Part shown: positions 11,755 to 61,995 of the stretch, piece after piece
How positions within the stretch are numbered: the stretch's first letter is position 1
Layout of the letters: the number at the start of each line of letters is the position of its first letter
DNA from: Anaerolineales bacterium
GTDB lineage: Bacteria > Chloroflexota > Anaerolineae > Anaerolineales > UBA4823
Length of the DNA stretch: 64,000 nt
NCBI GenBank assembly: GCA_020061105.1
Contig: JAGUYW010000030.1
Span: 20,549-84,548, forward strand
Direction of reading: 5' to 3'
Translations under genes and position numbers: made by a program
Notes under the pieces: generated by a model
The model's database searches: none
Seen by the model: only the letters and a program-made list of their open reading frames with translations
What the model was told of the DNA's origin: nothing

Positions 11755-12927
11755 CTAGGGATTGGCATTGGCAAAGAAGACAAATTTGCCATTGACAATT
11801 TGCAGGATTACGGCGCTCTTGATCGGGTCGCCAGAACCTTCTGCGAATTGCATGGTGCCCGTGACGCCTTCGAAGTTGGGGATCTTTGCCAGGGCGTCGC
11901 GCACTGCCTGACGGTCAATCTTGCCAGCCGCCTTCAGCGCCTGCCACAGCAAGCCGAAAGAGTCGTAGGTCAGGGCGGCTACATCGTCAGGAGTATTGCC
12001 ATATTTGGCGGTGTAGGCATCAATAAAGCCTTTCGCAACTGGGGTTGCATTATCGGCTGCATAGTGAGTGCTGAAGTAATAGCTCTCGCAGTCAGTCCCA
12101 CACAGAGTGATCAATTCAGCGCTGCCCCATGAGTCGCTGCCCAGGAAGGGCACTGTGATGCCCAGGCGCTTGGCCTGCTGGATCTGCAGCGGAACTTCGC
12201 TGTAGTAGTTGGGCAGGAAAACCACATCCGGGTTGGTGTCTTTGATCTTGGTCAGTTGGGCGGTGAAGTCCTTGTCGCCGGTGGTGTAGGTCTCGAAAGC
12301 CACTACCGTACCGCCGCTGCCTTCGAAGGTTGCCTTGAAGAACTCGGCAATGCCCTTGTTGTAATCAGAGGCCACATCGTATAACACTGCTGCTCGGGTC
12401 GCTTTCAGATTGTCCAGAGCAAAGCGGGCTATCACGCGCCCCTGGAACGGGTCGATGAAGGCCGCGCGGAAGACATACTTCTTCGAGGCGTCGGTCTTAG
12501 CGTCCAGGGTGGTCTTGGGGTTGGTAGACCACGGGCTGATCAACACCACCTTCGAGCTTTCAGCTATTTCAGAGGCTGGGATGGCATAGCGGCTGGCGTT
12601 CGGGCCGATAATCGCCACCACATTTTGTTGGGTGATCAGTTTCTGGGCTGCTGAAGCCGATTGGTCGGCTTTGCCGGCGTTGTCTTCAATAAAGAGCTCA
12701 ACTTTGTACTTTTTCCCGCCAATATCCAGGCCGCCGGCGTCGTTGATCTCAGCCACGGCCATTTCGGCTGCATTCTTGCACGAAGCGCCAACTGCGGGAA
12801 TATCCCCCGTTAATTCAGCAACCAGACCTACCCGGATGGTGTCGGCGCCACCGCCTGCTCCACCACAGCCCGATAGTACCAGGCTCAGGATGATCAAGAA
12901 GCTGACGAACAGCAATCCTTTCTTCAT
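11755..12927 (-). CDS. ABC transporter substrate-binding lipoprotein, Leu/Ile/Val-binding (type 1 periplasmic binding fold) family
   Basis: Lipobox LVLSGC. The pattern IRVGLVAELTGDIPAVGASCKNAAEMAVAEINDAGG is typical of LivJ/K-like binders. First gene of the liv operon. Confidence 0.85.
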   Translation of the reverse strand: MKKGLLFVSFLIILSLVLSGCGGAGGGADTIRVGLVAELTGDIPAVGASCKNAAEMAVAEINDAGGLDIGGKKYKVELFIEDNAGKADQSASAAQKLITQQNVVAIIGPNASRYAIPASEIAESSKVVLISPWSTNPKTTLDAKTDASKKYVFRAAFIDPFQGRVIARFALDNLKATRAAVLYDVASDYNKGIAEFFKATFEGSGGTVVAFETYTTGDKDFTAQLTKIKDTNPDVVFLPNYYSEVPLQIQQAKRLGITVPFLGSDSWGSAELITLCGTDCESYYFSTHYAADNATPVAKGFIDAYTAKYGNTPDDVAALTYDSFGLLWQALKAAGKIDRQAVRDALAKIPNFEGVTGTMQFAEGSGDPIKSAVILQIVNGKFVFFANANP

Positions 12928-13215
12928 AGCTCTCTCCTCGTGTGTGCTTAAAGTCAGAACGAACTGTTGTATGAAATTGTAATCAGGTTAGTTGTTGAGT
13001 TACAAGTTGTGATGCTTTTTTGCGCCGACCTCCTTTCTGGACAAGGTCTTGCCCGGCCGAAATCGCAGGCGCTGGGGCAATCAGGAGAATCGATACCCCA
13101 GGCAAATTAATTCTAAACTAATCTTATCACAAAACTATGTGTTTTTTGCCACTTATTATCGGGTCATGCTGGTGCAAAAGTGTTCACAAGCGTTACACCT
13201 GGTGTCGGGGATTCT

Positions 13216-13926
13216 CTACGGATGGTTCAGAGATTGTAGGACCAGTGACAGCGCCAATTCGACCCAGGCGGCATACATCTTGCCTGAAGGGTGTAGTCCA
13301 TCAGCGGCAATCCAATCAATCTCTTGCGCCGCCTTGCGTGAGATCTCTGTGATATCGATATAGATGGCGCCCATGCTCTGCACTTCCTGGCGGTTTACTT
13401 CGTTGAAGGCGTCAATTTGGGCTGCGATCTGCCATCTTTCGCGCCCGGCGGCGAAAGGCGTCACGCCCCAATCAGGAATCGAGAGCACAAATACCCGTCC
13501 GGTACGCCCACCGGCAAATTCGATGGCCTGGAGCAGCAAGCTCCTGAATTCGCTGCGATAAGCCTGCACATCCAGGCCGCGGTATTGGTTGTTCACCCCA
13601 ATCAGCAGCGAAACCAGGTCGAAAGGTCCTTGCGGTTTGGCTTGGGCGATTCCAACCGTTAACTCGCCAGTTGTCCAGCCGGTGCGAGCGATGATTTGTG
13701 GGTCTTGCATTGCCAGCCCCTGCGCCCGCAAAGCCGCCGCCAGCTGCATCGGCCAGCGTTCACCAACCTCAACTCCTTCTCCGATCGTGTACGAGTCGCC
13801 TAATGCCAGGTAATTCATTGTTTCGGATGGCGGTAAAGTCTCCACAGGCCCGTCCTTCTCTAATTCGCCCAGTGTGCTACAGGCTGCCAGGCTCAAGAGT
13901 ACCAAGATCAATAACCAGTCCATCAC
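13216..13926 (-). CDS. SGNH/GDSL-family hydrolase lipoprotein
   Basis: Lipobox LSLAAC, block I ALGDSYTIGEG, block III GVNNQY, C-terminal DGLHPS. Confidence 0.75.
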   Translation of the reverse strand: MMDWLLILVLLSLAACSTLGELEKDGPVETLPPSETMNYLALGDSYTIGEGVEVGERWPMQLAAALRAQGLAMQDPQIIARTGWTTGELTVGIAQAKPQGPFDLVSLLIGVNNQYRGLDVQAYRSEFRSLLLQAIEFAGGRTGRVFVLSIPDWGVTPFAAGRERWQIAAQIDAFNEVNRQEVQSMGAIYIDITEISRKAAQEIDWIAADGLHPSGKMYAAWVELALSLVLQSLNHP

Positions 13927-14034
13927 ATCTCTCTTTCGTAATTTGATTATAGGCGCAATTTCTGGCCTGTCAAATTTGCGAGCGGTTTACGAATTTCTTT
14001 TCCGTCCACAGGTATAATTGATTTAACCCAGAAA

Positions 14035-15573
14035 ATGGAGAAGCAATCGATGAAAGCGTTACTCGAAAAACTTCACCTGCAACCTTCCAACCCCGGCGCT
14101 TGCAGCGGGCCGGATGGTTGGGTGAGCGACCCTGCAGGCAAAGAATTGATATCCTATAATCCCACAACAGGCGAAGCGCTGGCTGGCGTTGTCCAGGCCA
14201 CCGCAGCGGCCTACCAGGCCATTGCGGACAACGCCCAACAAGCTTTCTTGAAATGGCGCCAGATACCAGCCCCTAAACGTGGTCTTGTGGTGCGCGACCT
14301 GGCAGACGCCTTGCGCCAGGCCAAAGAACCGCTTGGCGACCTGGTTTCGCTCGAGATGGGCAAGATCAAAGCGGAAGGTCAGGGCGAAGTGCAGGAAATG
14401 ATCGATATTTGCGATTTTGCTGTGGGTCTCTCGCGCCAGTTGTATGGGCTGACCATGCCTTCTGAGCGCCCTGGGCATCGCATGTTCGAGCAGTGGCACC
14501 CGCTGGGAGTGGTGGGGGTGATCACAGCATTCAATTTCCCCACCGCAGTCTGGTCGTGGAATGCGGCTATTGCTGCAGTATGCGGCGACCCGGTGCTTTG
14601 GAAGCCATCCTCTTCTACACCGCTGTGCGCCATTGCCGTGCAGCATATTGCCAACCAGGTGATGGCCGATCACGGCCTGCAAGGGATTTTTAACCTGGTT
14701 ATCGGCTCTGGACGCGAAGTTGGCGACCTGATGCTCAAAGATCCGCGCCTGCCGCTGATTTCATTTACGGGTTCTACCCACATCGGGCGGCGCGTTTCGA
14801 CGATGGTAGCCGAACGTTTCGGACGCGCCATCCTGGAATTGGGCGGCAATAACGCCATCATTGTCACCGAGCAGGCTAACCTGGACCTGGCTGTGCGCGC
14901 CATTTTATTCGGCGCGGTTGGCACTGCCGGGCAGCGCTGCACTACCACCCGGCGCATCATCATGCACAAGGACATCGCCCCGCAACTTACTACCCGTTTG
15001 GTGGATGCCTACCGCCAGGTGCGCCTGGGCGACCCGCTCGACCCCAATGTGATGATGGGGCCGCTGGTGGACGGCGATGCTGTGCAGGACATGTTCGCAG
15101 CCCTGGAAGAGGCCCAGCAGCAAGGTGGCCAAATTTTAGCAGGCGGCGAGCGACGCCCCGATTTAGGCGCCAATTTTGTCGAGCCTACCCTCGTCAAAAT
15201 GCCTGCTCAAACCGAGATTGTCAAACAAGAGACCTTTGCCCCGATCCTGTATTTGCTGGAATACAGCACCCTGGAGCAAGCCATTGAAATCCACAACGCT
15301 GTGCCGCAAGGTTTGTCAAGTGCCATCTTTACGGACAATTTGCGCCAGGCCGAAGCTTTTCTCTCGGCTGGCGGCTCGGATTGCGGCATCGCCAATGTCA
15401 ATATTGGCACCTCCGGGGCCGAGATTGGCGGCGCTTTTGGCGGCGAGAAAGAAACCGGCGGTGGGCGCGAGTCTGGTTCCGACGCCTGGAAGGCTTACAT
15501 GCGCCGCCAGACCAACACCATCAATTACTCAACGGAATTGCCCCTGGCGCAGGGGATAAAGTTTGGAGAATAA
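14035..15573 (+). CDS. Aldehyde dehydrogenase, ALDH7 / alpha-aminoadipic-semialdehyde (piperideine-6-carboxylate) dehydrogenase-like
   Basis: Catalytic Glu LELGGNNA and catalytic Cys GTAGQRCTT. N-terminus ...SYNPTTGEALAGVVQA is typical of the ALDH7 family. Confidence 0.8.
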   Translation: MEKQSMKALLEKLHLQPSNPGACSGPDGWVSDPAGKELISYNPTTGEALAGVVQATAAAYQAIADNAQQAFLKWRQIPAPKRGLVVRDLADALRQAKEPLGDLVSLEMGKIKAEGQGEVQEMIDICDFAVGLSRQLYGLTMPSERPGHRMFEQWHPLGVVGVITAFNFPTAVWSWNAAIAAVCGDPVLWKPSSSTPLCAIAVQHIANQVMADHGLQGIFNLVIGSGREVGDLMLKDPRLPLISFTGSTHIGRRVSTMVAERFGRAILELGGNNAIIVTEQANLDLAVRAILFGAVGTAGQRCTTTRRIIMHKDIAPQLTTRLVDAYRQVRLGDPLDPNVMMGPLVDGDAVQDMFAALEEAQQQGGQILAGGERRPDLGANFVEPTLVKMPAQTEIVKQETFAPILYLLEYSTLEQAIEIHNAVPQGLSSAIFTDNLRQAEAFLSAGGSDCGIANVNIGTSGAEIGGAFGGEKETGGGRESGSDAWKAYMRRQTNTINYSTELPLAQGIKFGE

Positions 15574-15579
15574 AAAGTC

Positions 15580-17586
15580 ATGCCTGGCAATAAAAAACGC
15601 TCTATCCAACCTGAAGACCTGTATCGCTTTCAACTGCTCAATGAAGTGCGCCTATCGCCTGATGGGTTGCACGTAATCTATACGGTCCAGCGCGTTGACC
15701 GTAAAACCGAAAAGAAATATTCCAACCTGTGGGTCGTCGACACCGGTACTGCCCAGGCACGCCAATTTACCTGGGGCGATCAGTCGGATAGCATGCCCCG
15801 TTGGTCTCCGGATGGGCAGCGCATCGCTTTTCTTTCCAACCGCCTGGACAAGGAAAAGCCTGCCCAAATCTTCATCATTCCCTTCACCGGCGGCGAAGCG
15901 CGGCCGCTGACCGATAATTTCGCTTCGATCGGCGCGTTTGCCTGGTCTCCAGACGGGAAGCGCCTGCTTTGCCAGGCGCGTAAAAAAGATGCCGAGGTTG
16001 TAGAACGCGAGAAGGATGAGCAAAAGAAAAAGCTCGGCGTGGTGGCGCGCCATTACGATCGCTTGTTCTACAAATTAGATGGCTATGGCTACCTGCCTGA
16101 TGAACGCTGGCACCTCTGGAAGGTGGAAGCTAACAGCGGCAAGGCGGTTCAACTCACTGGCCATCCGGTGTTTGATGAGCGCGATCCGGCGTGGTCGCCG
16201 GATGGCAAGTGGATTGCTTTCTTGTCGAACCGCAGCCCAGACCCCGATGCCAACCTGAACGCGGATGACTTATTTGTCATGCCAGCAAGCGGCGGCGAAA
16301 TTCAACTCATCCCCACCCCTCCAGCAGGTAAATCCTTACCCAGTTTCTCTCCAGATGGCAAATGGATTGCCTATTACGGCGGCGATAACGAAGACCACGG
16401 CTATCAAAATATTGGTCTGTTTGTTGTCCCGGTCGATGGCTCCGCCCAAGCCAAAAACCTGACTGCGGCTTATGATCTGAACGTCTCCTGCTGGACGATC
16501 AATGATCTGGGGCAGCCGGAATTGATGCCGCCCACCTGGTCGAATGACAGCCAGGTGATCTATTTTCCAGTCACATTACACGGTAACTCGCTGCTCAAAT
16601 TGATTTCCGTAAATAGCGATAGCCTTCAGGATGTCGTCCACCAAACTGGCGTGGTGGGCGGTTTCTCTTTTGACCAGGATCAACGACGACTGGCTTTTTT
16701 CTTCGGCGCCTTGGACGATCCCTGCCAGATTCATTTGATGGAAATGGGGAGCGGCAAGCAACGCCAGCTGACCCATATTAACCAGGAACTGCTGCGCACT
16801 TTTGATTTGGGTCAGATAGAAACTGTTTGGATCAAAGGACCAGCCGGCAACGATCTGCAGGGCTGGGTACTTAAACCACCCGGCTTCGACCCGCAGAAAA
16901 AATATCCTTCCATCCTGGAAATCCACGGCGGGCCGATGACCCAATATGGCAATTTCTTCATGCACGAGTTCTACTTCCTGGCGTCGCAAGGCTACGTAGT
17001 GCATTTTTGCAACCCGCGCGGCGGGCGCGGCTACGGTCAAGAACACACCAAAGCCATCTGGGGGGCATGGGGAAGCGCCGATTATGATGATTTAATGGCC
17101 TGGACGGATCATGTCGCTGCTCTGCCTTATATCGACCCCAGCCGCATGGGTGTTACCGGCGGTTCTTACGGCGGCTACATGACGGTGTGGATCATCGGTC
17201 ACACCCGGCGTTTCAAGGCTGCTGTAACTCAGCGCTGTGTCAGCAATTTCATCAGCATGTGGGGCTCCAGCGATTTTAACTGGTCTTTCCAGTTTGAACT
17301 GCAGACCGGGGCGCCCTTCGAGGATTTACAGAAATATTGGGACATGTCGCCGATCAAATATATTGGCAATGCTCGCACGCCTACTCTGGTAATTCATAAT
17401 GAGAATGATCAGCGTTGTCCCATCGAGCAAGGCGAGCAGGTCTTTGTTGCTCTCAAGCGCCTGGGCGTAGAAACAGAGTTTGTGCGCTTCCCCGAAGAGT
17501 TCCACGGGCTGTCGCGGTCGGGGCGCACAGATCGGCGTATCGTTCGCCTGAACCATATTGCGCGCTGGTTCAATCGATATTTATAG
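15580..17586 (+). CDS. S9-family serine peptidase (prolyl oligopeptidase/acylaminoacyl-peptidase type) with N-terminal TolB-like propeller
   Basis: Repeated SPDGK/SPDGQ propeller motifs. Nucleophile elbow GGSYGGYM. C-terminal ...HNENDQRCP...FPEEFHG (Asp/His). Confidence 0.85.
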   Translation: MPGNKKRSIQPEDLYRFQLLNEVRLSPDGLHVIYTVQRVDRKTEKKYSNLWVVDTGTAQARQFTWGDQSDSMPRWSPDGQRIAFLSNRLDKEKPAQIFIIPFTGGEARPLTDNFASIGAFAWSPDGKRLLCQARKKDAEVVEREKDEQKKKLGVVARHYDRLFYKLDGYGYLPDERWHLWKVEANSGKAVQLTGHPVFDERDPAWSPDGKWIAFLSNRSPDPDANLNADDLFVMPASGGEIQLIPTPPAGKSLPSFSPDGKWIAYYGGDNEDHGYQNIGLFVVPVDGSAQAKNLTAAYDLNVSCWTINDLGQPELMPPTWSNDSQVIYFPVTLHGNSLLKLISVNSDSLQDVVHQTGVVGGFSFDQDQRRLAFFFGALDDPCQIHLMEMGSGKQRQLTHINQELLRTFDLGQIETVWIKGPAGNDLQGWVLKPPGFDPQKKYPSILEIHGGPMTQYGNFFMHEFYFLASQGYVVHFCNPRGGRGYGQEHTKAIWGAWGSADYDDLMAWTDHVAALPYIDPSRMGVTGGSYGGYMTVWIIGHTRRFKAAVTQRCVSNFISMWGSSDFNWSFQFELQTGAPFEDLQKYWDMSPIKYIGNARTPTLVIHNENDQRCPIEQGEQVFVALKRLGVETEFVRFPEEFHGLSRSGRTDRRIVRLNHIARWFNRYL

Positions 17587-28739: not shown

Positions 28740-28813
28740 GCCCTCGTAGCTCAGTGGATTAGAGCATTTGCTTGCGGAGCAAAGGGTCGCGTGTTCGAGT
28801 CGCGCCGAGGGCG
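28740..28813 (+). tRNA. tRNA-Arg (anticodon GCG)
   Basis: Hand-folded cloverleaf. Acceptor GCCCTCG/CGAGGGC, D arm GCTC-AGTGGATTA-GAGC with A20, anticodon stem TTTGC/GCAAA, loop TT-GCG-GA, T arm GCGTG-TTCGAGT-CGCGC, discriminator G. CCA is not encoded. Confidence 0.8.
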
Positions 28814-28832
28814 CCTGATAGCACCATCAAGA

Positions 28833-36599: not shown

Positions 36600-36604
36600 A
36601 CCAG

Positions 36605-36675
36605 AGGCGACGACGGGATTTGAACCCGTGATCAGGGTTTTGCAGACCCTTGCCTTACCACTTGGCCACGTCGCC
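36605..36675 (-). tRNA. tRNA-Cys (GCA)
   Basis: Hand-folded. Acceptor GGCGACG/CGTCGCC, anticodon stem AGGGT/ACCCT, loop CT-GCA-AA, T loop TTCAAAT, discriminator U73. Confidence 0.9.
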
Positions 36676-36693
36676 GCGTCGATTAAAGAAAAG

Positions 36694-36766
36694 AGCGGGC
36701 AACGGGACTCGAACCCGTGACCTTCTCCTTGGCAAGGAGGTGTTCTACCAACTGAACTATGCCCGC
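36694..36766 (-). tRNA. tRNA-Gly (GCC)
   Basis: Hand-folded. Acceptor GCGGGCA/TGCCCGC, D arm GTTC-AGTTGGTA-GAAC, loop TT-GCC-AA, T arm ACGGG-TTCGAGT-CCCGT, 73 nt. Confidence 0.9.
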
Positions 36767-36792
36767 AGACTCGCCTGTGATCAGGCCGAGAG

Positions 36793-36865
36793 TGCCGAGA
36801 GCCAGAATCGAACTGGCGACACCATGATTTTCAGTCATGTGCTCTACCAACTGAGCTATCTCGGC
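36793..36865 (-). tRNA. tRNA-Phe (GAA)
   Basis: Hand-folded. Acceptor GCCGAGA/TCTCGGC, D arm GCTC-AGTTGGTA-GAGC, anticodon stem CATGA/TCATG, loop CT-GAA-AA, discriminator A, 73 nt. Confidence 0.9.
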
Positions 36866-36933: not shown

Positions 36934-37271
36934 GCGAATATTTTCACAGCTTTTAGAGAATTTTCTCATCCTGATCTTGCCAATTACCATATTTCGTTTT
37001 AGAATCAAATCTGTCTGTTGGAGAAACCACCCATGTGCACTCATGTTATTGCTTGCTCCTGTATGAGGCGGGGACTGTAGCAACCGCCCGGCCTCCTTTG
37101 CCCTGAACAGGCGTCTCTCCGCTGTACTTCTAAGCCTTCTCTTCTTGGTAAACGCTGCTGGCGGACACCAGCCACCCCGCAAATTTCCCTGCTCGTTTTG
37201 CCAATCTACTCTCAATTTCCTGCTATTGCATTTTCTTAATGTGTTCATTTTACAATTTGGAGAAATATTCA

Positions 37272-38204
37272 ATGAAAATCGCCAACGACGTTACCGAATT
37301 AATTGGCAATACCCCCCTCGTGCGCCTGCGCCGCCTGGCCGACGGAATGCCTGCTCAGGTGGTCGCCAAGCTCGAATTTTTCAACCCCGCTCATAGCGTC
37401 AAGGATCGCATTGGGCTGTCGATGATCGAGGCCGCCGAAAAAGCCGGCCAAATCAAGTCTGATACTATCATTGTTGAGCCCACGAGTGGCAATACCGGCA
37501 TCGCCCTGGCTTTTGTTTGCGCCGCCCGCGGCTATCAATGTGTCCTCACCATGCCCGAGACGATGAGCAAAGAGCGCCGCATGTTGCTGCGCGCTTACGG
37601 CGCCGATCTGATCTTGACTCCCGGCAGCGAAGGTATGAATGGCGCCATCCGCAGAGCAGAAGAACTTGTCGCCTCCGATCCGCGCTACTTTATGCCCATG
37701 CAGTTCAACAACCCTGCCAACCCGGAAGTGCACCGCCGCACCACTGCCCAGGAGATCTGGCGTGATACCGATGGGCAGATCGATATCCTGGTGGCAGGGA
37801 TTGGCACCGGCGGCACCATCACCGGCGCTGGCGAGGCTTTGAAAGACCTTAAACCATCTTTGCAGGTGGTGGCTGTCGAACCAGACGCCTCGCCCGTGCT
37901 CTCCGGTGGTCAGAAAGGTCCTCATCCCATCCAGGGCATCGGGGCTGGTTTTGTGCCTCAGGTGCTCAACACCCAGATCTATGATGAAATCGTGCGCGTC
38001 CCTGGTGAAATGGCCTTTGAATTTGCCCGGCGCATGGCTGCTGAAGAAGGACTGCTGGTAGGCATCTCCTCCGGCGCAGCCGTCTGGGCTGCTTTACAGG
38101 TCGCCCAGCGTTCCGAAAACAGTGGCAAGCTGCTGGTGGTGATCATTCCCTCCTTTGGCGAGCGCTACCTCAGCACGCCCTTATACGCCCACCTGGCAGA
38201 TTGA
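37272..38204 (+). CDS. cysK: Cysteine synthase A (O-acetylserine sulfhydrylase)
   Basis: Start moved to ATG 37272 ([25 protein letters not shown]). PLP lysine SVKDRIG, plus GTGGTITG. Confidence 0.9.
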
Positions 38205-53625: not shown

Positions 53626-56600
53626 TTAGTTGTCGTTCTTCCACCAGTTTTGACGCAGGGTAAAGAGGCTGGCATTGGCACGCGCCTCGAGCGTCTTTGC
53701 ACCCTGCTGGATGGCAAACTGGCGGGCAGTATCCAAACACTGTTCAGCCTGGTTGAAAATTGCCTGGCTTTGACCGGTTTGCAGCAATAGTTCGCCCTTG
53801 AGCCGGTAGGCTTCGGCCTCGAACCAGCGTTCGCGGGTTTGCACTCCCACAGCGATTGCTTCTTCCAGCGCTGCCAGGCCGCGCTCAAGCTGCCCGGCCA
53901 GCGCGCAGACCTGGGCGAACAGGATCAAAAAAGTGGTGCGGTTAAGGATTGTGCCCAGGCTTTGGTACTCTTGCATTACCTGATACATCCTCTCGACCTG
54001 TGCAAGGGCAGAAGCGCCGGACTGTGCGTAACCCCATGCCAGTAAAAAGTGCCCCCCCAACTCGTAATTGCGAAACTCATGCTGCTGGGCGATGTGCAGT
54101 AGCTTCTGCGCATGGAGACAAGTAGCTTCGATTTGACCGGTGAAGGCATGTTGCCAGCTGGCTCTGCCTAAAGCATAACAGGATGTCATGGGAACAGAAA
54201 CTTTTTCTGCCAGATCCAGGGCCTCTTGGCTCGCTCGCACGGCTTGTTCTTCATCTCCCATCAACCATTCGCAGTGGCTCAGGTAAGCCAGGGCTACCAC
54301 AGAAGGTGACATACCATATTGATACGCCAGGGAACGTTGTTGCGCGACATCGCGCGGCTGGCTGGCGCGCATGAGTATCTGGCGAGCTTCGATTAACCTA
54401 CCCTGATACAGCGGGCTGACTTGCAGGTTTGCCAGGCATTGCAGGTTAGGGTCGCCAATTTTCTGCGCCAGGTTGTAGAAACGTTTGACCAACCTGTCTA
54501 CTGCAATATGGTTGGCCCGCCCCAAATGGTACACAGAAAGCAGCCACAAGGCGGGGACCAACCGGGCGTCATCAGCCAGTTTGTGGCAAAGCGCTTCTGC
54601 ATCCTGGTAATTTTGTTCAAGGTCGGGTGCTGCCCATCCACGAGCGGCAGTAATCGGTGGCCCCAGACTGAGATGAAGGTCCAGCGCCTGCCAGTCACGA
54701 TTCTCGGATTCGGGCAAAGACCGGAGGTGACGGAGAGCTTGTTGGAAATGGTCGATGGCGGCGCGGCTGGCACTTAACTGGAGGGAGTATTTACCTGCCA
54801 TGGTGTAAAACTGGACAGTTTTTTCGATCTGCCCAGCGGACTCAAAATGGCGTGCCAATACATGGGCAACCTTGGCTAGTTTATCTTTATCGTGGATATT
54901 GTACTGCTCGAGTATTGCACCTACCTTACCATGCAGCCGTGATTTTTCCACCATATCCAGGTGGTTGTACAGGTAGATCTGAAACAGCGAGTGGCGAAAG
55001 CGATAGTGAGACAGGTTTTGTCCGCCTACCTGCTGCAGGCTTTGGGCAGTCACTAGCTGGTGTTGTTTGCTGACCTCCCTGCTTAACAGGTCACACACTC
55101 GCTGTACATCTTTCCCCGCTACACCTGCGATAACCTCAGCAGTGAATTGTTCTCCTTCCACGCAGGCGATATTCAAAAGCTCCTGACATTCCTCTGAAAG
55201 GTGGGCGATGCGCCGTGCGATCACTGCCTCTACCCGGCCTGGCAGCTTCTCCCAATTTAGATGCTGACTGGTGATCCATTTCCCCCGGTTGTTCTTGATA
55301 ATTTCATCGCGCAACTGCATGCCGCGCAAGAGCTCGATCGCAAACAGGGGGTTCCCCGAAGTATGGTGATAAAGGGAGTCTCGAAAGTGCTGGTCGAGCT
55401 CGTTCGGCTCGCTCTGGATCAGCTCTTTCACAAATAGAACGCCCTCGCTTTGCATCAGGTCGACCTGGATGTCGCCGTACACCGCACTCAGCTCCTGGAC
55501 GATCTCCAGCAAGGGGTGGGCTTCGGGGCTTCGCTTAACGATTACTTCTTCGGGACGATAGGCTCCCAAGATGAGAATTTTACTGCCGACGATCTGGCGT
55601 GCCAGGTGGAAGAGCAGGTTCACTGACCCGGGGTCGATCCACTGTAAATCGTCGAGCACCAAAATTAAGGGATGACGTCGCGCCAATTGGCAGTAAACCT
55701 GCGTTAGCTGGTCGAACAAGACAGCCTGTGATACTCGAGTCCGGAGCAGGGGATCAGACGCGCCCTTGATACGTACCTGCAAACGTCTCAGGGATTCTGG
55801 GGAGATGCCGGTATTCAGGCGCGCCAGCGATAGCAAATCTTTTCCCGAGAGGAAGCGGTCGAACAGGTCTGGTCCATGTTCCATTAAGACATCCAGTGTA
55901 TGGGGCAGGAACTTCCACAGCCGCCGCGCATGTTCTGTCGTGATGACGCCGGAGGACACCGGGATTTCCACCTCGCCGGCAAGCATATGTAGGGTGCTCA
56001 GAAAAGGATAATAAGGATCCCCTTGGCCGGTAAATGCGCTGCACTGCCCCCAGGCAACCAGTAGATCGGGGTAGGTAAGCATGGCACGGCGGGAAAATTC
56101 TGCCAGCAAAGCTGTCTTGCCGCTGCCCGGTTCACCAGTCACAAAATAAACCCTGCCATGCCCTTGGTTGGCTTCCTCCAAGGCTTTCTCAAGCAGTCCA
56201 AGCTCAAGCTGGCGCGCAAAGAAGAGCGGGAATCTATCTTTAGAAAGACGACCCTCCACCAGAAATTCAGGGATGTGCTTTTGAGGAAGCATCTCATTCC
56301 CTGTCCATGCAGGTGGCTGAGGCATACTGCCCAGAGATATCCCAGGTTTACCATCTCGGAGCTGTTCGTAAAGCCGGACGGTTTCTGGCTCAGGCTTGAT
56401 GCCCAGGTCACGAGCGAGGTGAGAGCAGCATTCGTCGTACAATACCAGTGCGGTAGAGCGCCGGTTCAGAGCAGACAGGAGTTGCATCTGGTAACGGTAG
56501 GCGGCCTCATCCCATGGTTCCAATTCAAGATAATGCCGGGTGTACTCAGCCGCGGCTTCCAGTTCGCCCCATTGCTCTTGCGCCAGCGCCAGCCGTCTTA

Positions 56601-57117
56601 GGATCTGCAGCAGCCTCTGGTGAGCCTGTTCGCGGGTCGCTAATATCCATTCCTCCAAAGGTGCGCTGTCAACCGAGAAACCTTCCAGGAATTCCCCCCG
56701 ATAGAGAGCCAGAGCAGCTTCCAGTTGGTGGATGCTGATTTCGCCTGGCAATATCTCTTTCCGGGTGTCGGTTTGTGCTGGTCGATCCAGAAATGCCCAC
56801 AAATCGAGCCAACAGTCGCTGTCACGATTGAACTGGAGGGTGGTTTCTGAAAGGAGGAAAAATGAGGGCTCTGACCCTGCGTCTCCAAGTATATGGCGCA
56901 GGTTGGAGAGTGCGTTGCGCAGGTTGCTTTGAGCCGATATTTCGGGCAGGTCGGGCCACAACAGGCCGGCTAATGTAGCGCGTGACCAGGGACGGCGACA
57001 TTCGACCATCAAATAAGCCAGCAGAGCTCGTACTTTGTTGGAGCGGAATCCACTCAGGTGGTGACCTTCCAACTCAGCGGCAAAAGGGCCTAAGAGTCTG
57101 ACCAAGAGGCGCGACAT
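53626..57117 (-). CDS. SARP/BTAD-family transcriptional regulator fused to AAA/NB-ARC-like ATPase and TPR array (STAND architecture)
   Basis: N-terminal winged helix plus BTAD (LLGPF....G........K.RALLAYL; ALALYRGEFLEG; YRYQMQLL). Walker A GEPGSGKTAL and Walker B ILVLDDLQWID. The C-terminal ~500 aa are TPR-like repeats. Confidence 0.85.
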   Translation of the reverse strand: MSRLLVRLLGPFAAELEGHHLSGFRSNKVRALLAYLMVECRRPWSRATLAGLLWPDLPEISAQSNLRNALSNLRHILGDAGSEPSFFLLSETTLQFNRDSDCWLDLWAFLDRPAQTDTRKEILPGEISIHQLEAALALYRGEFLEGFSVDSAPLEEWILATREQAHQRLLQILRRLALAQEQWGELEAAAEYTRHYLELEPWDEAAYRYQMQLLSALNRRSTALVLYDECCSHLARDLGIKPEPETVRLYEQLRDGKPGISLGSMPQPPAWTGNEMLPQKHIPEFLVEGRLSKDRFPLFFARQLELGLLEKALEEANQGHGRVYFVTGEPGSGKTALLAEFSRRAMLTYPDLLVAWGQCSAFTGQGDPYYPFLSTLHMLAGEVEIPVSSGVITTEHARRLWKFLPHTLDVLMEHGPDLFDRFLSGKDLLSLARLNTGISPESLRRLQVRIKGASDPLLRTRVSQAVLFDQLTQVYCQLARRHPLILVLDDLQWIDPGSVNLLFHLARQIVGSKILILGAYRPEEVIVKRSPEAHPLLEIVQELSAVYGDIQVDLMQSEGVLFVKELIQSEPNELDQHFRDSLYHHTSGNPLFAIELLRGMQLRDEIIKNNRGKWITSQHLNWEKLPGRVEAVIARRIAHLSEECQELLNIACVEGEQFTAEVIAGVAGKDVQRVCDLLSREVSKQHQLVTAQSLQQVGGQNLSHYRFRHSLFQIYLYNHLDMVEKSRLHGKVGAILEQYNIHDKDKLAKVAHVLARHFESAGQIEKTVQFYTMAGKYSLQLSASRAAIDHFQQALRHLRSLPESENRDWQALDLHLSLGPPITAARGWAAPDLEQNYQDAEALCHKLADDARLVPALWLLSVYHLGRANHIAVDRLVKRFYNLAQKIGDPNLQCLANLQVSPLYQGRLIEARQILMRASQPRDVAQQRSLAYQYGMSPSVVALAYLSHCEWLMGDEEQAVRASQEALDLAEKVSVPMTSCYALGRASWQHAFTGQIEATCLHAQKLLHIAQQHEFRNYELGGHFLLAWGYAQSGASALAQVERMYQVMQEYQSLGTILNRTTFLILFAQVCALAGQLERGLAALEEAIAVGVQTRERWFEAEAYRLKGELLLQTGQSQAIFNQAEQCLDTARQFAIQQGAKTLEARANASLFTLRQNWWKNDN

Positions 57118-57349: not shown

Positions 57350-58072
57350 ATGATCACTGGCGAACAACTGCTAGAGGTCTTTGCTGCTTATAACCCGCAA
57401 ATATGGCCGATGCAGTTTGTGGCTTACCTGCTGGGTGTGACGGCAGTTTATCTTGCGCTACGAAAGACAGCCTTTTCAGCGCGTGGCATTCCTGCCATCC
57501 TGGCGTTTTTCTGGCTGTGGGTGGCGCTGTTGTTTTGGCTGCCCAGCGTGTTGCAAGGTTTTATGCCCGGGTATTTCTTTGTAGCCATTTTCTTGATCCA
57601 GGGTTTGTTTTTTGTGATTTATACCATCAGACCCCGGCTGCATTTTGGATCCCCGCCAGATTTGAAGACCTGGATGGGGCTGGGAATGATGCTGTATGCC
57701 CTGCTTGGCTACCCTCTGGTCGGCGCGCTGGTGGGACACACCTACCCGCGCATGTCCCCATTTGGTTTGACCCCCTGCCCGGTGGTGACATTCACTTTTG
57801 GTTTATTATTGTTGAGCGAACAAAAAGTGCCCAAGGGTCTGTTGATCTTACCCTTCCTTTACGCCCTTACTGGCTTTGTGTGGGTATCCATCGGCATGTG
57901 GGAGGATATCGGCATGATCCTCAGCGGATTGGTGGGAACAGGATTTATCTTGTACCGTGATTCCAGGGTTCCAACTGAGAATCAGGTAAATGGTGGTTGG
58001 AGCCTGAATATTCCAGATAAAAAACCGCCGGTTAAGATGAGCCATGAAATCAACCGGTCATCGAGCAGCTGA
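57350..58072 (+). CDS. Integral membrane protein (DUF6064-like)
   Basis: N-terminus EQLLEVFAAYNPQIWPMQFVAYLLGV and ~7 hydrophobic segments. Family assignment from memory only. Confidence 0.55.
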   Translation: MITGEQLLEVFAAYNPQIWPMQFVAYLLGVTAVYLALRKTAFSARGIPAILAFFWLWVALLFWLPSVLQGFMPGYFFVAIFLIQGLFFVIYTIRPRLHFGSPPDLKTWMGLGMMLYALLGYPLVGALVGHTYPRMSPFGLTPCPVVTFTFGLLLLSEQKVPKGLLILPFLYALTGFVWVSIGMWEDIGMILSGLVGTGFILYRDSRVPTENQVNGGWSLNIPDKKPPVKMSHEINRSSSS

Positions 58073-58200: not shown

Positions 58201-58764
58201 ATGAAAACCAATCACTTGTGTGTCAGTCGTATCTTAGCAGCTGCTGTCATAATCGCCGCGATCTCGATGATCCTGATCGTTCATCCAGCTGCAGCAGAAG
58301 CCACTCGGCTTGACTTCGAAAACTACAATATTGCTTGCTCAATCGTTTCTCAAAAGCTGTGGGTTAGCGATGGTGGGGTTGTGCACATCAGGGACCGTGA
58401 GCTTAACTCGGTGGTGACTTCCAACAGCGAATATTTTGCAGGCCCAGGACATATCTTTGCCAACGCAAACTTATTCAACCCCGCCATGGGTATTGGCACA
58501 TACTTTGGCACCTTGGACATCTACCCAACAGCTTATCCTGAAGGATACTGGTTTGGTCATTGGAGCATGCAGATCACTGAGAATGGCTACCAGGGCCTCG
58601 CTCGCTTAAAAGGTTATGGCAGTCTGCAAGGCATGTTGGCTTTTAGCACCTTGACTCCGCTTCCACCGACAGTATTGGCTAATTATAAGGACCTGTGTGG
58701 TGGAAATCAGCCGATTGCCGGAACATATGTCGAAGGCTATTACCTGGTTCCAGGAGGTGAATGA
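58201..58764 (+). CDS. Secreted hypothetical protein
   Basis: Signal peptide ending AAAEA. GGAGGAAAC RBS. No recognised motif. Confidence 0.5.
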   Translation: MKTNHLCVSRILAAAVIIAAISMILIVHPAAAEATRLDFENYNIACSIVSQKLWVSDGGVVHIRDRELNSVVTSNSEYFAGPGHIFANANLFNPAMGIGTYFGTLDIYPTAYPEGYWFGHWSMQITENGYQGLARLKGYGSLQGMLAFSTLTPLPPTVLANYKDLCGGNQPIAGTYVEGYYLVPGGE

Positions 58765-58876: not shown

Positions 58877-59260
58877 ATGAAGGTTAACACCTTGATCGTG
58901 ATTATGGCGTTACTCTCTCTGATCTGGGGGGCCGGTTTTATCCTGATACCTACCTTCTTCTGGTCGCTTTATGGACTGGCTCTGGACGCGGGAGGGGAGT
59001 ATATGTCACGCCAGTTAGGTGTGGTTTTCTTTATGCTGGGCTTGATCCTATGGTTAGCCAGAAAGGAACAAAGCCCGGTGGCATTGCGAGCGATGACGAT
59101 CGGTCTTTTTTACGGCAATGTGCTGGGCTTTGTGGTGGCGCTAATTGGTCAATTCGGCGCCGAGATCAGCATGTTAGGCTGGGTTGGGATCGTTTCGTAC
59201 TTCTTGCTGGCATTAGGTTTTGGTTATTATCTGGTGAGACCGGTAGATTCGCACATCTAA
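58877..59260 (+). CDS. Small 4-TM membrane protein, function unknown
   Basis: 127 aa with four hydrophobic helices and a GAGG RBS. Confidence 0.5.
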   Translation: MKVNTLIVIMALLSLIWGAGFILIPTFFWSLYGLALDAGGEYMSRQLGVVFFMLGLILWLARKEQSPVALRAMTIGLFYGNVLGFVVALIGQFGAEISMLGWVGIVSYFLLALGFGYYLVRPVDSHI

Positions 59261-59494: not shown

Positions 59495-59521
59495 TTGAAA
59501 ACCATGTGAGTCTGGTATAAT
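59495..59521 (+). promoter_or_regulatory. Putative promoter with extended -10 for the Prx-like gene
   Basis: TTGAAA-N15-(TGg)TATAAT lies ~70 nt upstream of ATG 59589. Confidence 0.5.
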
Positions 59522-59588
59522 GACAACATAGAGATCGGGTGGGGGGAATGGGCATCTACAAAATAACTAATCTTTCGAGGTTCGAAAA

Positions 59589-60065
59589 ATGAGTCGTTTA
59601 TCGCTGGGCGATACAGCCCCAAATTTTGCGCTACCCAACCATGAAGGCGCAGTGTTCAAATTATCGGATGTCTATCGTACTCAGAATGTGCTGCTGGTTT
59701 TTAACCTTGGTTTTGTCTGACCGCATTGCACCAATCATATGGCGCAGTTGCGCCAGGACTATGCAAAGTTTCAAGACTTGAACAGCGAAGTGCTGGTGAT
59801 CTTGCCGAATGGGCCTAAGATGATCGAGCGGTATGCTCGCCGCACTGCTACACCTTACCCGATCTTGAGCGACAAGGGCGCCCGGGTTGCAGAACAGTAT
59901 GGCATCAAAACCAGGCGCCTGGTGCAGGTCGCCGCGTTCACGCCCAGCGTGTTCCTGGTCGATCGAACGGGAACGATCCGTTACACCAACTATTCGACTT
60001 CGTATATCAAGGAGCCGGATAATGGCGAGCCGCTGGCGGTATTGGCGTCAGGCAAATCACAATAA
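59589..60065 (+). CDS. Peroxiredoxin-like (AhpC/TSA, PRX_like2-type) thiol-disulfide oxidoreductase with in-frame TGA at the redox site: candidate selenoprotein (U-P-H-C)
   Basis: ATG 59589 is in frame with ORF 59739..60065. The only interruption is TGA 59718-59720 (codon 44). Conceptual product: MSRLSLGDTAPNFALPNHEGAVFKLSDVYRTQNVLLVFNLGFV-U-PHCTNHMAQLRQDYAKFQDLNSEVLVI... The TGA sits where this family carries the first Cys of CxxC. A SECIS-like hairpin lies downstream. Confidence 0.6.
59736..59763 (+). promoter_or_regulatory. SECIS-like hairpin 15 nt downstream of TGA 59718
   Basis: Lower stem CATA/TATG, a 4-nt 3' bulge, upper 6-bp stem TGGCGC/GCGCCA, apical loop AGUU (contains GU). Confidence 0.45.
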
Positions 60066-60118
60066 TTACCCTGTGGGTTTTGAAATTGATCGATGGGGGG
60101 TCATGTTGACCCTGGTGA

Positions 60119-60491
60119 GTGCTGGAATGGTCAGCGGCAGCGTGCAATATCTGTACGATCTGATTGGTGGAGATGGCTTACCAGCGCGCGCCGTGGTTCC
60201 GGTTAGTGTGTGAGCCGCTCAAGGTGAAGCTTCAAGCGACTCAAGTGCGCGTTTTCTTGATCGGCGACGGGGTGCAATGCGCTGTCAAAGGCCAGTAGAC
60301 TCCACAGGAATATTACAATATCGAGCGGATGATTATGCCTGTCCTGCACGCCGGGGAAGTAGCAACTTGAGGAACATGCCAAAAAGCCCGAGGTCTCGGG
60401 CAAGACGTGCTGGATCGCTAAGCTCCAATTCGGGACGAAGGAACTGCTTACAGATTGGACCATGGAAGCCGACAAAGGATTGGTTTTTTGA
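60119..60491 (+). pseudogene. YchN/DsrE-family gene remnant with TGA at the C-x-x-C cysteine (ancestral selenoprotein?), plus TAG, another TGA and a +1 frameshift
   Basis: Frame A reads ...AYQRAPWFRLVCEPL...VRVFLIGDGVQCAVKGQ-TAG(60296)-TPQEYYNIERMI...GEVAT-TGA(60368)-GTCQKARGLGQDVL. After a 1-nt shift near 60410-60416 it reads IAKLQFGTKELLTDWTMEADKGLVF-stop(60489). This matches the family blocks GQK..GYYN, C-x-T-C..RG and W....ADKVL.F. A further TGA lies at 60161 in the N-terminal strand. Confidence 0.5.
60386..60401 (+). promoter_or_regulatory. SECIS-like hairpin 15 nt downstream of TGA 60368
   Basis: 6-bp stem GCCCGA/TCGGGC with apical loop GGUC. Confidence 0.4.
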
Positions 60492-60554: not shown

Positions 60555-60744
60555 TTGAAGAGAATGCAAGGGGCGCGAATGCCACCCCCATCCATCATTT
60601 TACACTTTGAAATCATCTCAGGTAAGTGACACCTGTCCATAAAAAAATAGGGGCGATTGACCCTAACCAAAAATGGGGGCATTTACTATGATTAAGCTCG
60701 GAAGATTAAGCCAGGATGAGATATTGTTTCCGAGGAGAATGCAT

Positions 60745-61995
60745 ATGAAAAGTAAATGGTTGATCTTAGTTGTTCTGACGCTGGCGGCCTTGCTGATAGC
60801 AGGTTGCGCCGGCGCGCAAGGTCCTGCAGGACCCGCCGGCCCGGCAGGACCGGCAGGTCTGAAAGGCGACCCCGGCCCAGCAGGTCCGGCAGGCCCAAAG
60901 GGCGATCCTGGCCCGGCGGGTGAAGCCGCCTCCGCCTTCCGCACCTATGCAGGCGACGAAGCTTGCGCCGGGTGCCACACGGATCTTTACGACAAATACA
61001 AGATGTCAGGTCATCCCTGGAAATTAACCAAAGTTGAAGGTGGACAAGCCCCAAATTATCCGTTCACCAAGCTCACTGAGTTGCCACAAGGCTATACCTG
61101 GGACGATATTTTGTATGTAATTGGCGGTTACGCCTGGAAGGCCCGTTTTGTAAACAAGGAAGGCTATATCATCACAGATGAACCAGGTAAGACTGGCAAT
61201 GCAGATTACTTGAACCAGTGGAACTTTGCGAATACTATTGTTGGTAAGCAAGCTGGTTGGGTCAAGTACAATTCCGGTAAAGAGAAGCTGCCATATAATT
61301 GTGGCTCTTGCCACACCACTGCATATAGTCCACGGGGCAATCAGGATGATTTGCCCGGTTTGGTAGGCACCTGGAAACAAGAAGGGATTCGCTGTGAAGA
61401 ATGCCATGGCTTTGGCGGTTTGCACATTCAGGATCCACAAGGCGCCCCGATGGATGTTGTGCGCGATTCCGAGATGTGCGGTAAATGCCATCGCCGCGAC
61501 GATGTAGAAAATGTCAACGCCAAGGGCGGCTTCATTGAGCATCACGAACAGTATGAAGAACTATATCAAAGCAAGCATATCACAATCAACTGTGTAGTCT
61601 GCCATGACCCGCACACTGGCGTAGTTCAATTGCGCCAGATGGGTATGCAGACCACTCGCACTACTTGCGCGAATTGTCACTATAAACAGGCCCAGGTACA
61701 AAACAATGAAATCCATGCTGCAATGAGAGTAGATTGCGTGGAGTGTCATATGCCTAGGCTGGTCAAAACTGCCTGGGGTGATATCGATAAGTTTACTGGC
61801 GATATTCGCACCCACCTGATGGCCATTGACTCGCAGCAGCTTACCACTTTTGGCGAAGATGGCAGTCTGGTTAGCGGTCAAATCGGTTTGGATTGGGCTT
61901 GTCGGCACTGTCACGTGGAAGGCGGCAGCGCAACTGCAAAAACCGATGAAGAATTACTGAATGGAGCGTCTGATTATCACACACCCAATCCATAA
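60745..61995 (+). CDS. Octaheme c-type cytochrome lipoprotein with N-terminal collagen-like (G-X-Y)12 tether
   Basis: Start at ATG 60745 (GGAGA RBS) and lipobox LIAGC. Eight CxxCH motifs: CAGCH, CGSCH, CEECH, CGKCH, CVVCH, CANCH, CVECH, CRHCH. Confidence 0.85.
60820..60927 (+). repeat. Collagen-like triplet repeat coding region
   Basis: Encodes [36 protein letters not shown]. The GC-rich repeat also creates spurious antisense ORFs (60663..61054). Confidence 0.85.

Follow-up and report, generated by a model that had tools for sequence, protein, structure and literature searches.

Introduction

Peroxiredoxin-like (Prx-like) thiol:disulfide oxidoreductases of the PF00578 family that carry selenocysteine (Sec, U) in a UxxC or UxxU motif were predicted by Kryukov and Gladyshev in 2004, have been in catalogues since 2004-2005 and recur in later accounts of selenoproteins (PMC13188914 Table 1, PMC9312934, PMC1794560, PMC1088965), and a "Redoxin family protein" (PF08534) with a UxxC motif has likewise been catalogued. 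Published members of the Prx-like family come mostly from Deltaproteobacteria, Clostridia and marine metagenomes, and in UxxC redox proteins Cys forms are usually widespread, with Sec forms scattered among them (PMC1088965). As for the Chloroflexota, three selenoproteins had been counted in the phylum by 2006 (PMC1794560), Dehalococcoidia genomes hold 46-49 selenoproteins in BSepDB (PMC13326102), and a Sec-containing FdhA is present in an Anaerolineae single-cell genome (PMC5736913). Here we analyse a 64,000-nucleotide stretch of DNA from an Anaerolineales bacterium (assembly GCA_020061105.1, contig JAGUYW010000030.1), referred to below as the window, and in particular its positions 59589-60065, where a preliminary description based on the letters alone had proposed a peroxiredoxin-like gene interrupted by an in-frame UGA codon and followed by a hairpin that resembles a selenocysteine insertion sequence (SECIS). 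We find that this segment is very probably a single Sec-decoded gene for a small redox selenoenzyme.

Among selenoproteins built on a peroxiredoxin fold, PrxU (NF040737) is described as thioredoxin-dependent, and its Sec replaces the peroxidatic Cys within a TxxU motif. The SelB-binding SECIS elements of Escherichia coli fdhF and of Moorella thermoacetica are GC-rich hairpins that lie in the coding sequence soon after the UGA and expose a G-U in a small apical loop; in fdhF the spacing is ~18 nt. The gene described here resembles these systems in part, and the points on which it departs from them are set out below.

A reading frame that continues through UGA

The frame comprises 158 codons on the forward strand, from an ATG at 59589 to a TAA at 60063-60065, and the TGA at 59718-59720 is its sole interruption. 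Its product can be written as MSRLSLGDTAPNFALPNHEGAVFKLSDVYRTQNVLLVFNLGFV-U-PHCTNHMAQLR...SGKSQ, where the UGA (codon 44), the proposed Sec codon, opens a U-P-H-C redox motif whose second redox residue, Cys47, is encoded by a TGC at 59727-59729 that is invariant in all orthologues. The start codon, the frame and a GAGG at 59577-59580, which lies 8 nt upstream of the ATG and is a candidate ribosome-binding site, read as the preliminary description had given them, and the start is further backed by orthologues that begin in the same column (MNRLSLGD, MKRLSVGD, MANLTAGD, MNRLAVGD and MDQLKFGD). The promoter proposed upstream of the gene at 59495-59521 fares less well: its sequence is present (TTGAAA at 59495-59500, a 15-nt spacer and TGgTATAAT, with the TATAAT at 59516-59521), but it was not reported by a sigma-70 consensus scan that requires a 16-18-nt spacer, and because of its short spacer we grade this possible extended -10 promoter as a sequence resemblance only. 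When U is written as Cys, the conceptual protein matches Pfam AhpC-TSA (PF00578) over residues 7-132 (94.6 bits against a cutoff of 26, E = 5.5e-27) and Pfam Redoxin over residues 7-139; because both matches span residue 44, homology extends through the TGA, in line with the AhpC/TSA-redoxin identity that had been read from the N-terminus. In the list of open reading frames (ORFs) the gene appears merely as two fragments, one of 43 aa and one of 108 aa; the latter begins at Met51, a false start (ATG at 59739-59741) that contributes to the 5' arm of the hairpin. These readings confirm the initial observation.

The truncation that had been anticipated from standard gene callers is general in the databases. 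From a database of 5.8 billion proteins, 128 relatives were recovered, and 117 of the 120 listed cover just 54-71% of the query. All 20 truncated homologues that were aligned begin exactly at Met51 ("MAQLR"), as do the truncated matches obtained when P0002 was searched exhaustively with HMMER against 1.84 billion cluster representatives. The three full-length proteins among the 120 listed (P0002-P0004) read GF[VI]-W-PHC, with a tryptophan at codon 44. The underlying DNA of P0002 and P0003 has a TGA here, translated with a TGA=Trp code, and in P0003 the same code also runs through an upstream TGA to give a spurious 64-residue N-terminal extension, from which we conclude that the W at codon 44 is a gene-calling artefact. 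The TGA=Trp code was chosen by gene callers on short contigs (L002, 154-615; L003, 884-1540; L029, 512-973; L030, 113-571).

On DNA, the TGA stands at the identical codon in 10/10 distinct family sequences (12 when near-identical variants are counted). The set comprises the window, L001 (a Chloroflexia metagenome-assembled genome, MAG), L002, L003, L004 (GCA_040768445.1), L009, L012, L019 with the near-identical variants L020 and L022 (GCA_013572295.1), L023 (JGI 3300076801) and L026 (GCA_964435475.1). At the protein level, these sequences are ~54-67% identical to the window protein, and around codon 44 they share the motif GF[VAIS]-U-[PI]-H-C-T-N-H-M-A-Q-L-R. The TGA is also found at codon 44 of two distant subfamily members with ~31-35% identity, L029 (protein P0126, ENA ERZ3430519) and L030 (protein P0137, GCA_044240405.1), whose motifs are NRGFV-U-PFC and NRGLY-U-KHC, respectively, and which have a hairpin with an AGUU loop at the same offset. 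Because both carry the TGA together with the hairpin, the Sec/SECIS arrangement appears to be older than the Anaerolineales clade. A further protein, P0146, likewise reads W in the Sec column at the protein level.

The nature of the Sec column was examined in more distant relatives. Among the 1.84 billion representatives, those above ~43% identity are all truncated forms, full-length matches are 25-40% identical, and no Cys-form orthologue above ~43% identity was found. Of 27 further homologues that were aligned, mostly full-length, ~14 have Cys in the column, the classical Prx-like members have Thr/Ser and three have W; for two of these three (P0126/L029 and P0137/L030) the W is a TGA on the DNA. 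The Cys-form relatives show C-x-x-C at this site (for example GFLCPFC, GFTCSHC and GDWCPFC, with the variants CPFC, CSHC, CQHC and CPLC). The preliminary description had placed the TGA at the first position of a CxxC motif and had made its case depend on a conserved Cys/Sec column in homologues; the alignments agree on both points, as the nearest full-length relatives are mostly C-x-x-C and all TGA-form relatives share the codon. Judged from these alignments, the gene forms a Sec/Cys pair with its homologues, and no form other than the TGA form appears to exist within its own clade.

Two further observations bear on how the codon is read. Between the TGA and Met51, codons 45-50 keep the sequence P-H-C-T-N-H while varying at synonymous positions (CCG/CCA, CAT/CAC, AAT/AAC and ACC/ACG); because these codons are under selection at the amino-acid level, ribosomes must pass the TGA in frame. 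The same pattern, conserved amino acids with abundant synonymous variation, is seen in both halves of the gene. Moreover, TGA terminates 19 of the 54 long ORFs in the window, such as a 321-aa ORF at 37239-38204 (cysteine synthase-like by eye), which shows that TGA is not reassigned in the source genome.

A hairpin in the coding sequence downstream of the UGA

The core of the SECIS-like structure is a hairpin at 59740-59755 on the forward strand, with a 6-bp stem (UGGCGC/GCGCCA) and an AGUU apical loop (59746-59749) that begins 25 nt after the UGA. The stem grows to 8 bp in orthologues with His56 or Arg56 (the equivalent positions in the window are 59738-59757). The minimal hairpin folds at -10.8 kcal/mol with a z score of -3.7, and its 66-nt context has a z score of -2.4. 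The hairpin, its loop and its spacing had all been noted previously and are real, but the outer limits then given (59736-59763) include a lower-stem extension of the minimum free energy (MFE) fold of the window (UUGCA/UGCAA), which we rejected as part of the element because it is not conserved in orthologues. According to the published model of bacterial SECIS (bSECIS) elements, the apical loop measures 3-9 nt and has a G within its first two positions, usually followed by G or U, the upper stem has 4-16 bp, the loop lies 16-37 nt from the UGA, and the MFE is -7.5 kcal/mol or lower (PMC13188914 Fig. 2). The window hairpin agrees with this model on every count, having a 4-nt loop with G second and then U, a stem of 6-8 bp, and a spacing and folding energy within the published limits, so the earlier statement that the spacing falls inside the range of bacterial SECIS models is correct. 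It shares with the fdhF and Moorella elements a GC-rich stem within the coding sequence shortly after the UGA and the G-U of the small loop, in line with the consensus in PMC13188914; it differs in that its spacing is 25 nt, against the ~18 nt of fdhF, its upper stem lacks a bulged U, its sequence is unrelated and it has no Rfam match.

Synonymous sites indicate that the RNA itself is constrained. The codon usage of nine orthologues was compared in those columns where the amino acid is both invariant and degenerate, and a single codon was used by 9/9 orthologues in 6/10 columns within codons 46-57, as compared to 0/46 columns elsewhere (Fisher p = 6.5e-6). The frozen codons include Ala52 (GCG, 9/9), Gln53 (CAG, 9/9) and Leu54 (TTG, 9/9), and the synonymous site of Asp57 is also invariant in 9/9; other invariant Leu columns use 3-6 different codons. 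Arg55 is always encoded by CGN and never by AGR, with C (5), U (3) or G (1) as the third base; C and U can pair with the opposing G, whereas the lone G cannot.

Pairing is also kept where the sequence has diverged. In L029 the hairpin lies at the same offset and has the same AGUU loop, and its stem reads GAUGC/GCAUC instead of GGCGC/GCGCC, such that both bases of two pairs are exchanged (A-U for G-C and U-A for C-G), in conjunction with the replacements Ala52 to Met and Arg55 to His. In L030 the Met51 codon is replaced by TTG (Leu) inside the same hairpin. Over an alignment of 12 sequences, 94.8% of the cells of the 8-pair helix are paired and three pairs are doubly changed, as compared to at most 54% paired in every slid control. 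The preliminary description had held that a hairpin lacking conservation in TGA-carrying orthologues would speak against it; the structure is kept in these orthologues, apart from a single mismatch in L002, and it bears both the frozen synonymous sites and the compensatory changes of L029.

A second fold of the same region, structure B (59718-59755), is also found in orthologues and is mutually exclusive with the core hairpin; in it, the 3' arm of the SECIS-like element pairs with the UGA itself and with the codon for Cys47. RNAfold prefers structure B in 5 of the 12 sequences, and it is favoured where Arg55 is encoded by CGU. We rejected it as the conserved element, as compensatory changes are lacking and the only departures at six of its pairs are breaks in pairing. 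We regard structure B as secondary; it may be an alternative conformer, perhaps regulatory, or a mere consequence of the GC-rich repeat.

Predicted structure and active site

To place the UxxC motif on a known scaffold, the protein was aligned with phmmer to 2cx3_A, the BCP of Aeropyrum pernix. Cys47 falls on the peroxidatic Cys49 and U44 on Ser46, the Thr/Ser of the PxxxT/SxxC motif, while Leu40 aligns with the Pro of this motif (position -7) and the family-invariant Pro119 with the catalytic Arg122. The canonical Prx catalytic tetrad (Pro-x3-Thr/Ser-x2-Cys plus Arg) is therefore not preserved, as only the Cys (Cys47) is kept and 3/4 positions differ. Pro119 would correspond to the cis-Pro of thioredoxin-like proteins. 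From these correspondences, the active site is best read as a thioredoxin-style UxxC motif on a BCP/PrxQ-like peroxiredoxin scaffold. This refines the original placement of the TGA: the U-x-x-C arrangement stands, with the qualification that Sec takes the place of the Thr/Ser of peroxiredoxins and not that of the peroxidatic Cys, which corresponds to Cys47.

An AlphaFold model was obtained for the orthologue P0002 (predicted local distance difference test score (pLDDT) of 84.6; predicted template modelling score (pTM) of 0.83). Helix alpha-1 begins at residue 45 in the model, which positions residue 44 at its N-cap; the loop formed by residues 43-46 has low confidence, as a Trp stands in for Sec. 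The modelled fold requires strands 14-38 from the N-terminal part of the protein. Its closest solved folds in a Foldseek search are BCP, PrxQ and AhpE (template modelling (TM) scores of 0.81-0.85, probability 1.00), with ResA-type oxidoreductases lower down. The protein has neither a signal peptide nor a membrane anchor and opens directly with strand beta-1, and for these reasons it is probably cytoplasmic.

In the comparison with described families, no curated NCBIfam model reached its cutoff. Members of the BCP/PrxQ and AhpE group (2cx3 from Aeropyrum pernix, 3drn, the Bcp1 of Sulfolobus, and 1xxu, the AhpE of Mycobacterium tuberculosis) are the best sequence matches in the Protein Data Bank (E = 7e-13 to 1e-8); they are also the best fold matches, have a similar size of ~155 aa and have their peroxidatic Cys at the position of Cys47. 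The gene product differs from BCP/PrxQ proteins in having Leu40, Sec44 and the invariant Pro119 in place of Pro (-7), Thr/Ser (-3) and Arg, and it scores 62.6 bits against the BCP equivalog (NF006960), whose cutoff is 140. With three of the four tetrad positions changed and this score below the cutoff, a canonical Prx mechanism is not expected. PrxU is similar in being a selenoprotein on a peroxiredoxin fold, but here Sec precedes the peroxidatic position by three residues and that position retains its Cys, and the PrxU model gives 25.7 bits against a cutoff of 270. Like the gene product, thiol-disulfide oxidoreductases of the ResA/TlpA/CcmG type and the SelL-related redox proteins (NF040769) adopt a thioredoxin fold that contains Prx-like insertions, open helix alpha-1 with a CxxC-type motif and have a Pro where peroxiredoxins have Arg, and they give weak matches (ResA, E = 1e-7 to 5e-4; SelL-related redox protein, 59 bits). 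The gene product departs from these proteins in lacking a signal peptide or membrane anchor, in scoring below the respective cutoffs (59.1 versus 120 bits for the SelL-related model; 50.4 versus 170 for the NCBIfam model of ResA) and in a fold that is nearer to BCP and AhpE than to ResA.

Neighbouring genes

The genes around the locus are unrelated to selenium. Upstream, a large transcriptional regulator of 1163 aa with BTAD-AAA_16-TPR architecture and of the SARP/LuxR-like "STAND" type (53626-57117, reverse strand) is followed by a membrane protein of the DUF6064 family (57350-58072) and by two small ORFs without a family match (58201-58764 and 58877-59260) that encode small membrane or secreted proteins; a LuxR-type two-component pair is also a neighbour. 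Directly downstream, a 440-aa ORF at 60673-61995 on the forward strand has an unusual domain combination: an N-terminal hydrophobic segment and a triple-helix repeat of the collagen-like G-P-A/G-D-P kind (Pfam Collagen, residues 44-84) are joined to a region of multihaem cytochrome c (Cytochrome_C7, c3, paired CXXCH and C554). A site scan detected no terminator-like site between the selenoprotein gene and this cytochrome gene. A probably spurious 108-aa ORF in another frame (59887-60213, forward strand), without a match to any family, covers the 3' end of the selenoprotein gene and extends into the intergenic region. The surroundings of the orthologues are not syntenic, which indicates a stand-alone gene.

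A scan of the window for ORFs bridged by TGA yielded no convincing second selenoprotein; the candidates were either natural stops with non-coding sequence behind them or out-of-frame noise. The tRNA genes of the window are a Phe(GAA)-Gly(GCC)-Cys(GCA) cluster at 36604-36865 (reverse strand) and a tRNA-Arg(GCG) at 28740-28815 (forward strand). On the 259-kb contig that carries the orthologue L023, positions 12853-17085, ~2.5-7 kb from the orthologue, encode FdhD, a NuoF-like FdhB-type subunit and a 235-aa Fer2/Fer4 protein that resembles the N-terminus of the alpha subunit of NAD-dependent formate dehydrogenase; neither a molybdopterin domain nor a TGA-interrupted FdhA was found beside these genes.

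Discussion

We consider it very probable that 59589-60065 is one Sec-decoded gene that encodes a small redox selenoenzyme, and the interpretation given in the preliminary description is supported. The analysis shows directly the continuous frame, the conserved UGA, translation through the UGA, the constraint acting on the RNA, the fold and the alignment of the active site. On the model of the E. coli and Moorella systems, the UGA at codon 44 would be read as Sec during translation, presumably in a SelB-dependent manner that places selenium in the protein. The selenolate of Sec44 could then attack an oxidised substrate, which may be a disulfide, a sulfenic acid or a peroxide, after which Cys47 would resolve the intermediate to a selenenylsulfide and a reductant of the thioredoxin type would recycle the enzyme.

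Several observations weigh against this reading. No selA, selB, selD or tRNA-Sec gene occurs within the 64-kb window or within ~150 kb of distinct orthologous flanks, and ARAGORN found no tRNA-Sec in the window or in 10 loci. With respect to the hairpin, the covariation consists of very few independent events, as L029 alone accounts for 2/3 compensated pairs, the stem of L002 contains one G-G mismatch, and two relatives fold more weakly than the -7.5 kcal/mol threshold when the 24-nt minimal hairpin is taken alone (-6.9 kcal/mol in L019, and -7.3 kcal/mol). MAQLR is partly conserved in Cys-form relatives (AAQLRQDY in P0149), so some of the conservation acts at the protein level. No Rfam SECIS family was matched, either in a scan of the whole window at the gathering threshold or in a permissive scan of 59650-59850, where the only match was a chance miRNA (E = 1.8). 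Finally, structure B, the alternative hairpin that includes the UGA itself, is 86.9% paired.

Four other explanations of the locus were considered, and are taken here in declining order of probability. The hairpin could be a by-product of the M-A-Q-L-R peptide at the start of helix alpha-1, in which case Sec insertion, if it occurs, would depend on something else; this is very unlikely. It gains some weight from the occurrence of the AQLR motif in relatives listed as Cys forms (P0149 and P0137), from the lack of a matching Rfam family and from the competition of structure B in 5/12 sequences. A constraint on the peptide does not, however, account for the synonymous sites of Ala52, Gln53, Leu54 and Asp57, which are fixed in 9/9 orthologues when all 46 comparable columns elsewhere vary, nor for the exclusive use of CGN at Arg55, where the C and U third bases keep the pairing and a single G breaks it. 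L029 even exchanges two amino acids while keeping both base pairs, and the competing structure B changes only by losing pairs. Even less probable is a selenium-independent read-through of the UGA, in which a near-cognate or suppressor tRNA (Trp, Cys or Gly), or else a reassigned code, would supply residue 44 and the hairpin would stimulate read-through generically. The failure to find Sec genes in the window and in the orthologous flanks fits such a mechanism, as do the Trp calls at codon 44 of P0002-P0004. Yet TGA is an ordinary stop codon at the end of 19/54 long ORFs of the window, the TGA=Trp reading of P0003 is discredited by the upstream TGA that it crosses, and the homologues have Cys, not Trp or Gly, in this column; in addition, the hairpin fits the SelB-type model, down to the G-U of its small apical loop and the distance of that loop from the UGA (PMC13188914), and the Chloroflexota include known users of Sec (PMC13326102, PMC5736913).

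The locus might instead yield two products, a 43-aa peptide that ends at UGA44 and a 108-aa part made from Met51, perhaps as a split enzyme whose re-initiation is tuned by the hairpin. All close orthologues have an ATG for Met51, which lies 18 nt after the TGA, and the hairpin overlaps this codon and could in principle govern its accessibility, but an ATG that is base-paired in a stem would be hindered in initiation, no Shine-Dalgarno-like motif precedes it, and L030 has TTG (Leu) at this position within the same hairpin. Under this scheme codons 45-50 would go untranslated, although P-H-C-T-N-H is kept there with synonymous changes only and the redox residue Cys47 falls among them, and the modelled fold could not do without the N-terminal strands. 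We therefore regard two products as highly improbable. The least credible of the four is a pseudogene or an assembly or sequencing error, by which a former Cys codon (TGC/TGT) was mutated or miscalled as TGA. Current annotation does treat the gene as interrupted, with a 43-aa ORF and a 104-115-aa "peroxiredoxin", and the window shows no Sec machinery. The same TGA is nonetheless present in every orthologue examined, in independent assemblies (NCBI, JGI, ENA and Logan) and down to ~31-35% identity, both halves retain their amino acids amid abundant synonymous variation, and no TGC or TGT form was found among close relatives. This conservation of the TGA effectively refutes the error hypothesis, which can be held as scarcely conceivable.

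Returning to the Sec-decoded gene, its features fit those of the catalogued Prx-like UxxC selenoproteins: it has a PF00578 domain, Sec in the first position of UxxC (not TxxU) and a bSECIS-like element. This placement follows the description of that family, not homology to its reference WP_010940744.1. The clade described here belongs to the Anaerolineales/Chloroflexota, outside the groups that supply most published members, and differs from the family description in having no Cys-form orthologues above ~43% identity and no NCBIfam model above its cutoff. It is possible, though we hold it only tentatively and think it somewhat less probable than its converse, that the clade is a distinct, uncatalogued subfamily with a Prx fold that is Anaerolineales/Chloroflexota-wide and obligately Sec-containing, with a chemistry that may be neither that of canonical peroxiredoxins nor that of a plain CxxC protein. 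The basis for this suggestion is the absence of Cys forms above ~43% identity, the near-invariant SECIS-like element in the M-A-Q-L-R codons, the hybrid active site and the systematic truncation. UxxC Prx-like selenoproteins and SECIS hairpins in coding regions are already well established, so current concepts are unchanged and the gene will not surprise a selenoprotein specialist; what is notable in it is the clade-wide lack of Cys forms, the unusually invariant SECIS-like element in the MAQLR codons and its systematic truncation in annotation.

The finding should be of use to annotators and to physiologists of the Anaerolineae. Apart from the full-length false-Trp calls, every public record examined is a 104-115-aa "peroxiredoxin" or "redoxin domain protein" that lacks the active site (e.g. 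MBN1665769.1), and because of this truncation, redox and metabolic inventories of Anaerolineales MAGs miss both the selenoenzyme and the selenium requirement that it implies. A W aligned to the Cys column of a redox motif is a cheap flag for such hidden selenoproteins in protein databases. The gene itself may serve as a convenient marker of Sec decoding in the Anaerolineales, which are abundant and poorly cultured, and the absence of Cys-form orthologues from its clade suggests that Sec is under strong selection there, which would be unusual for a UxxC redox protein.

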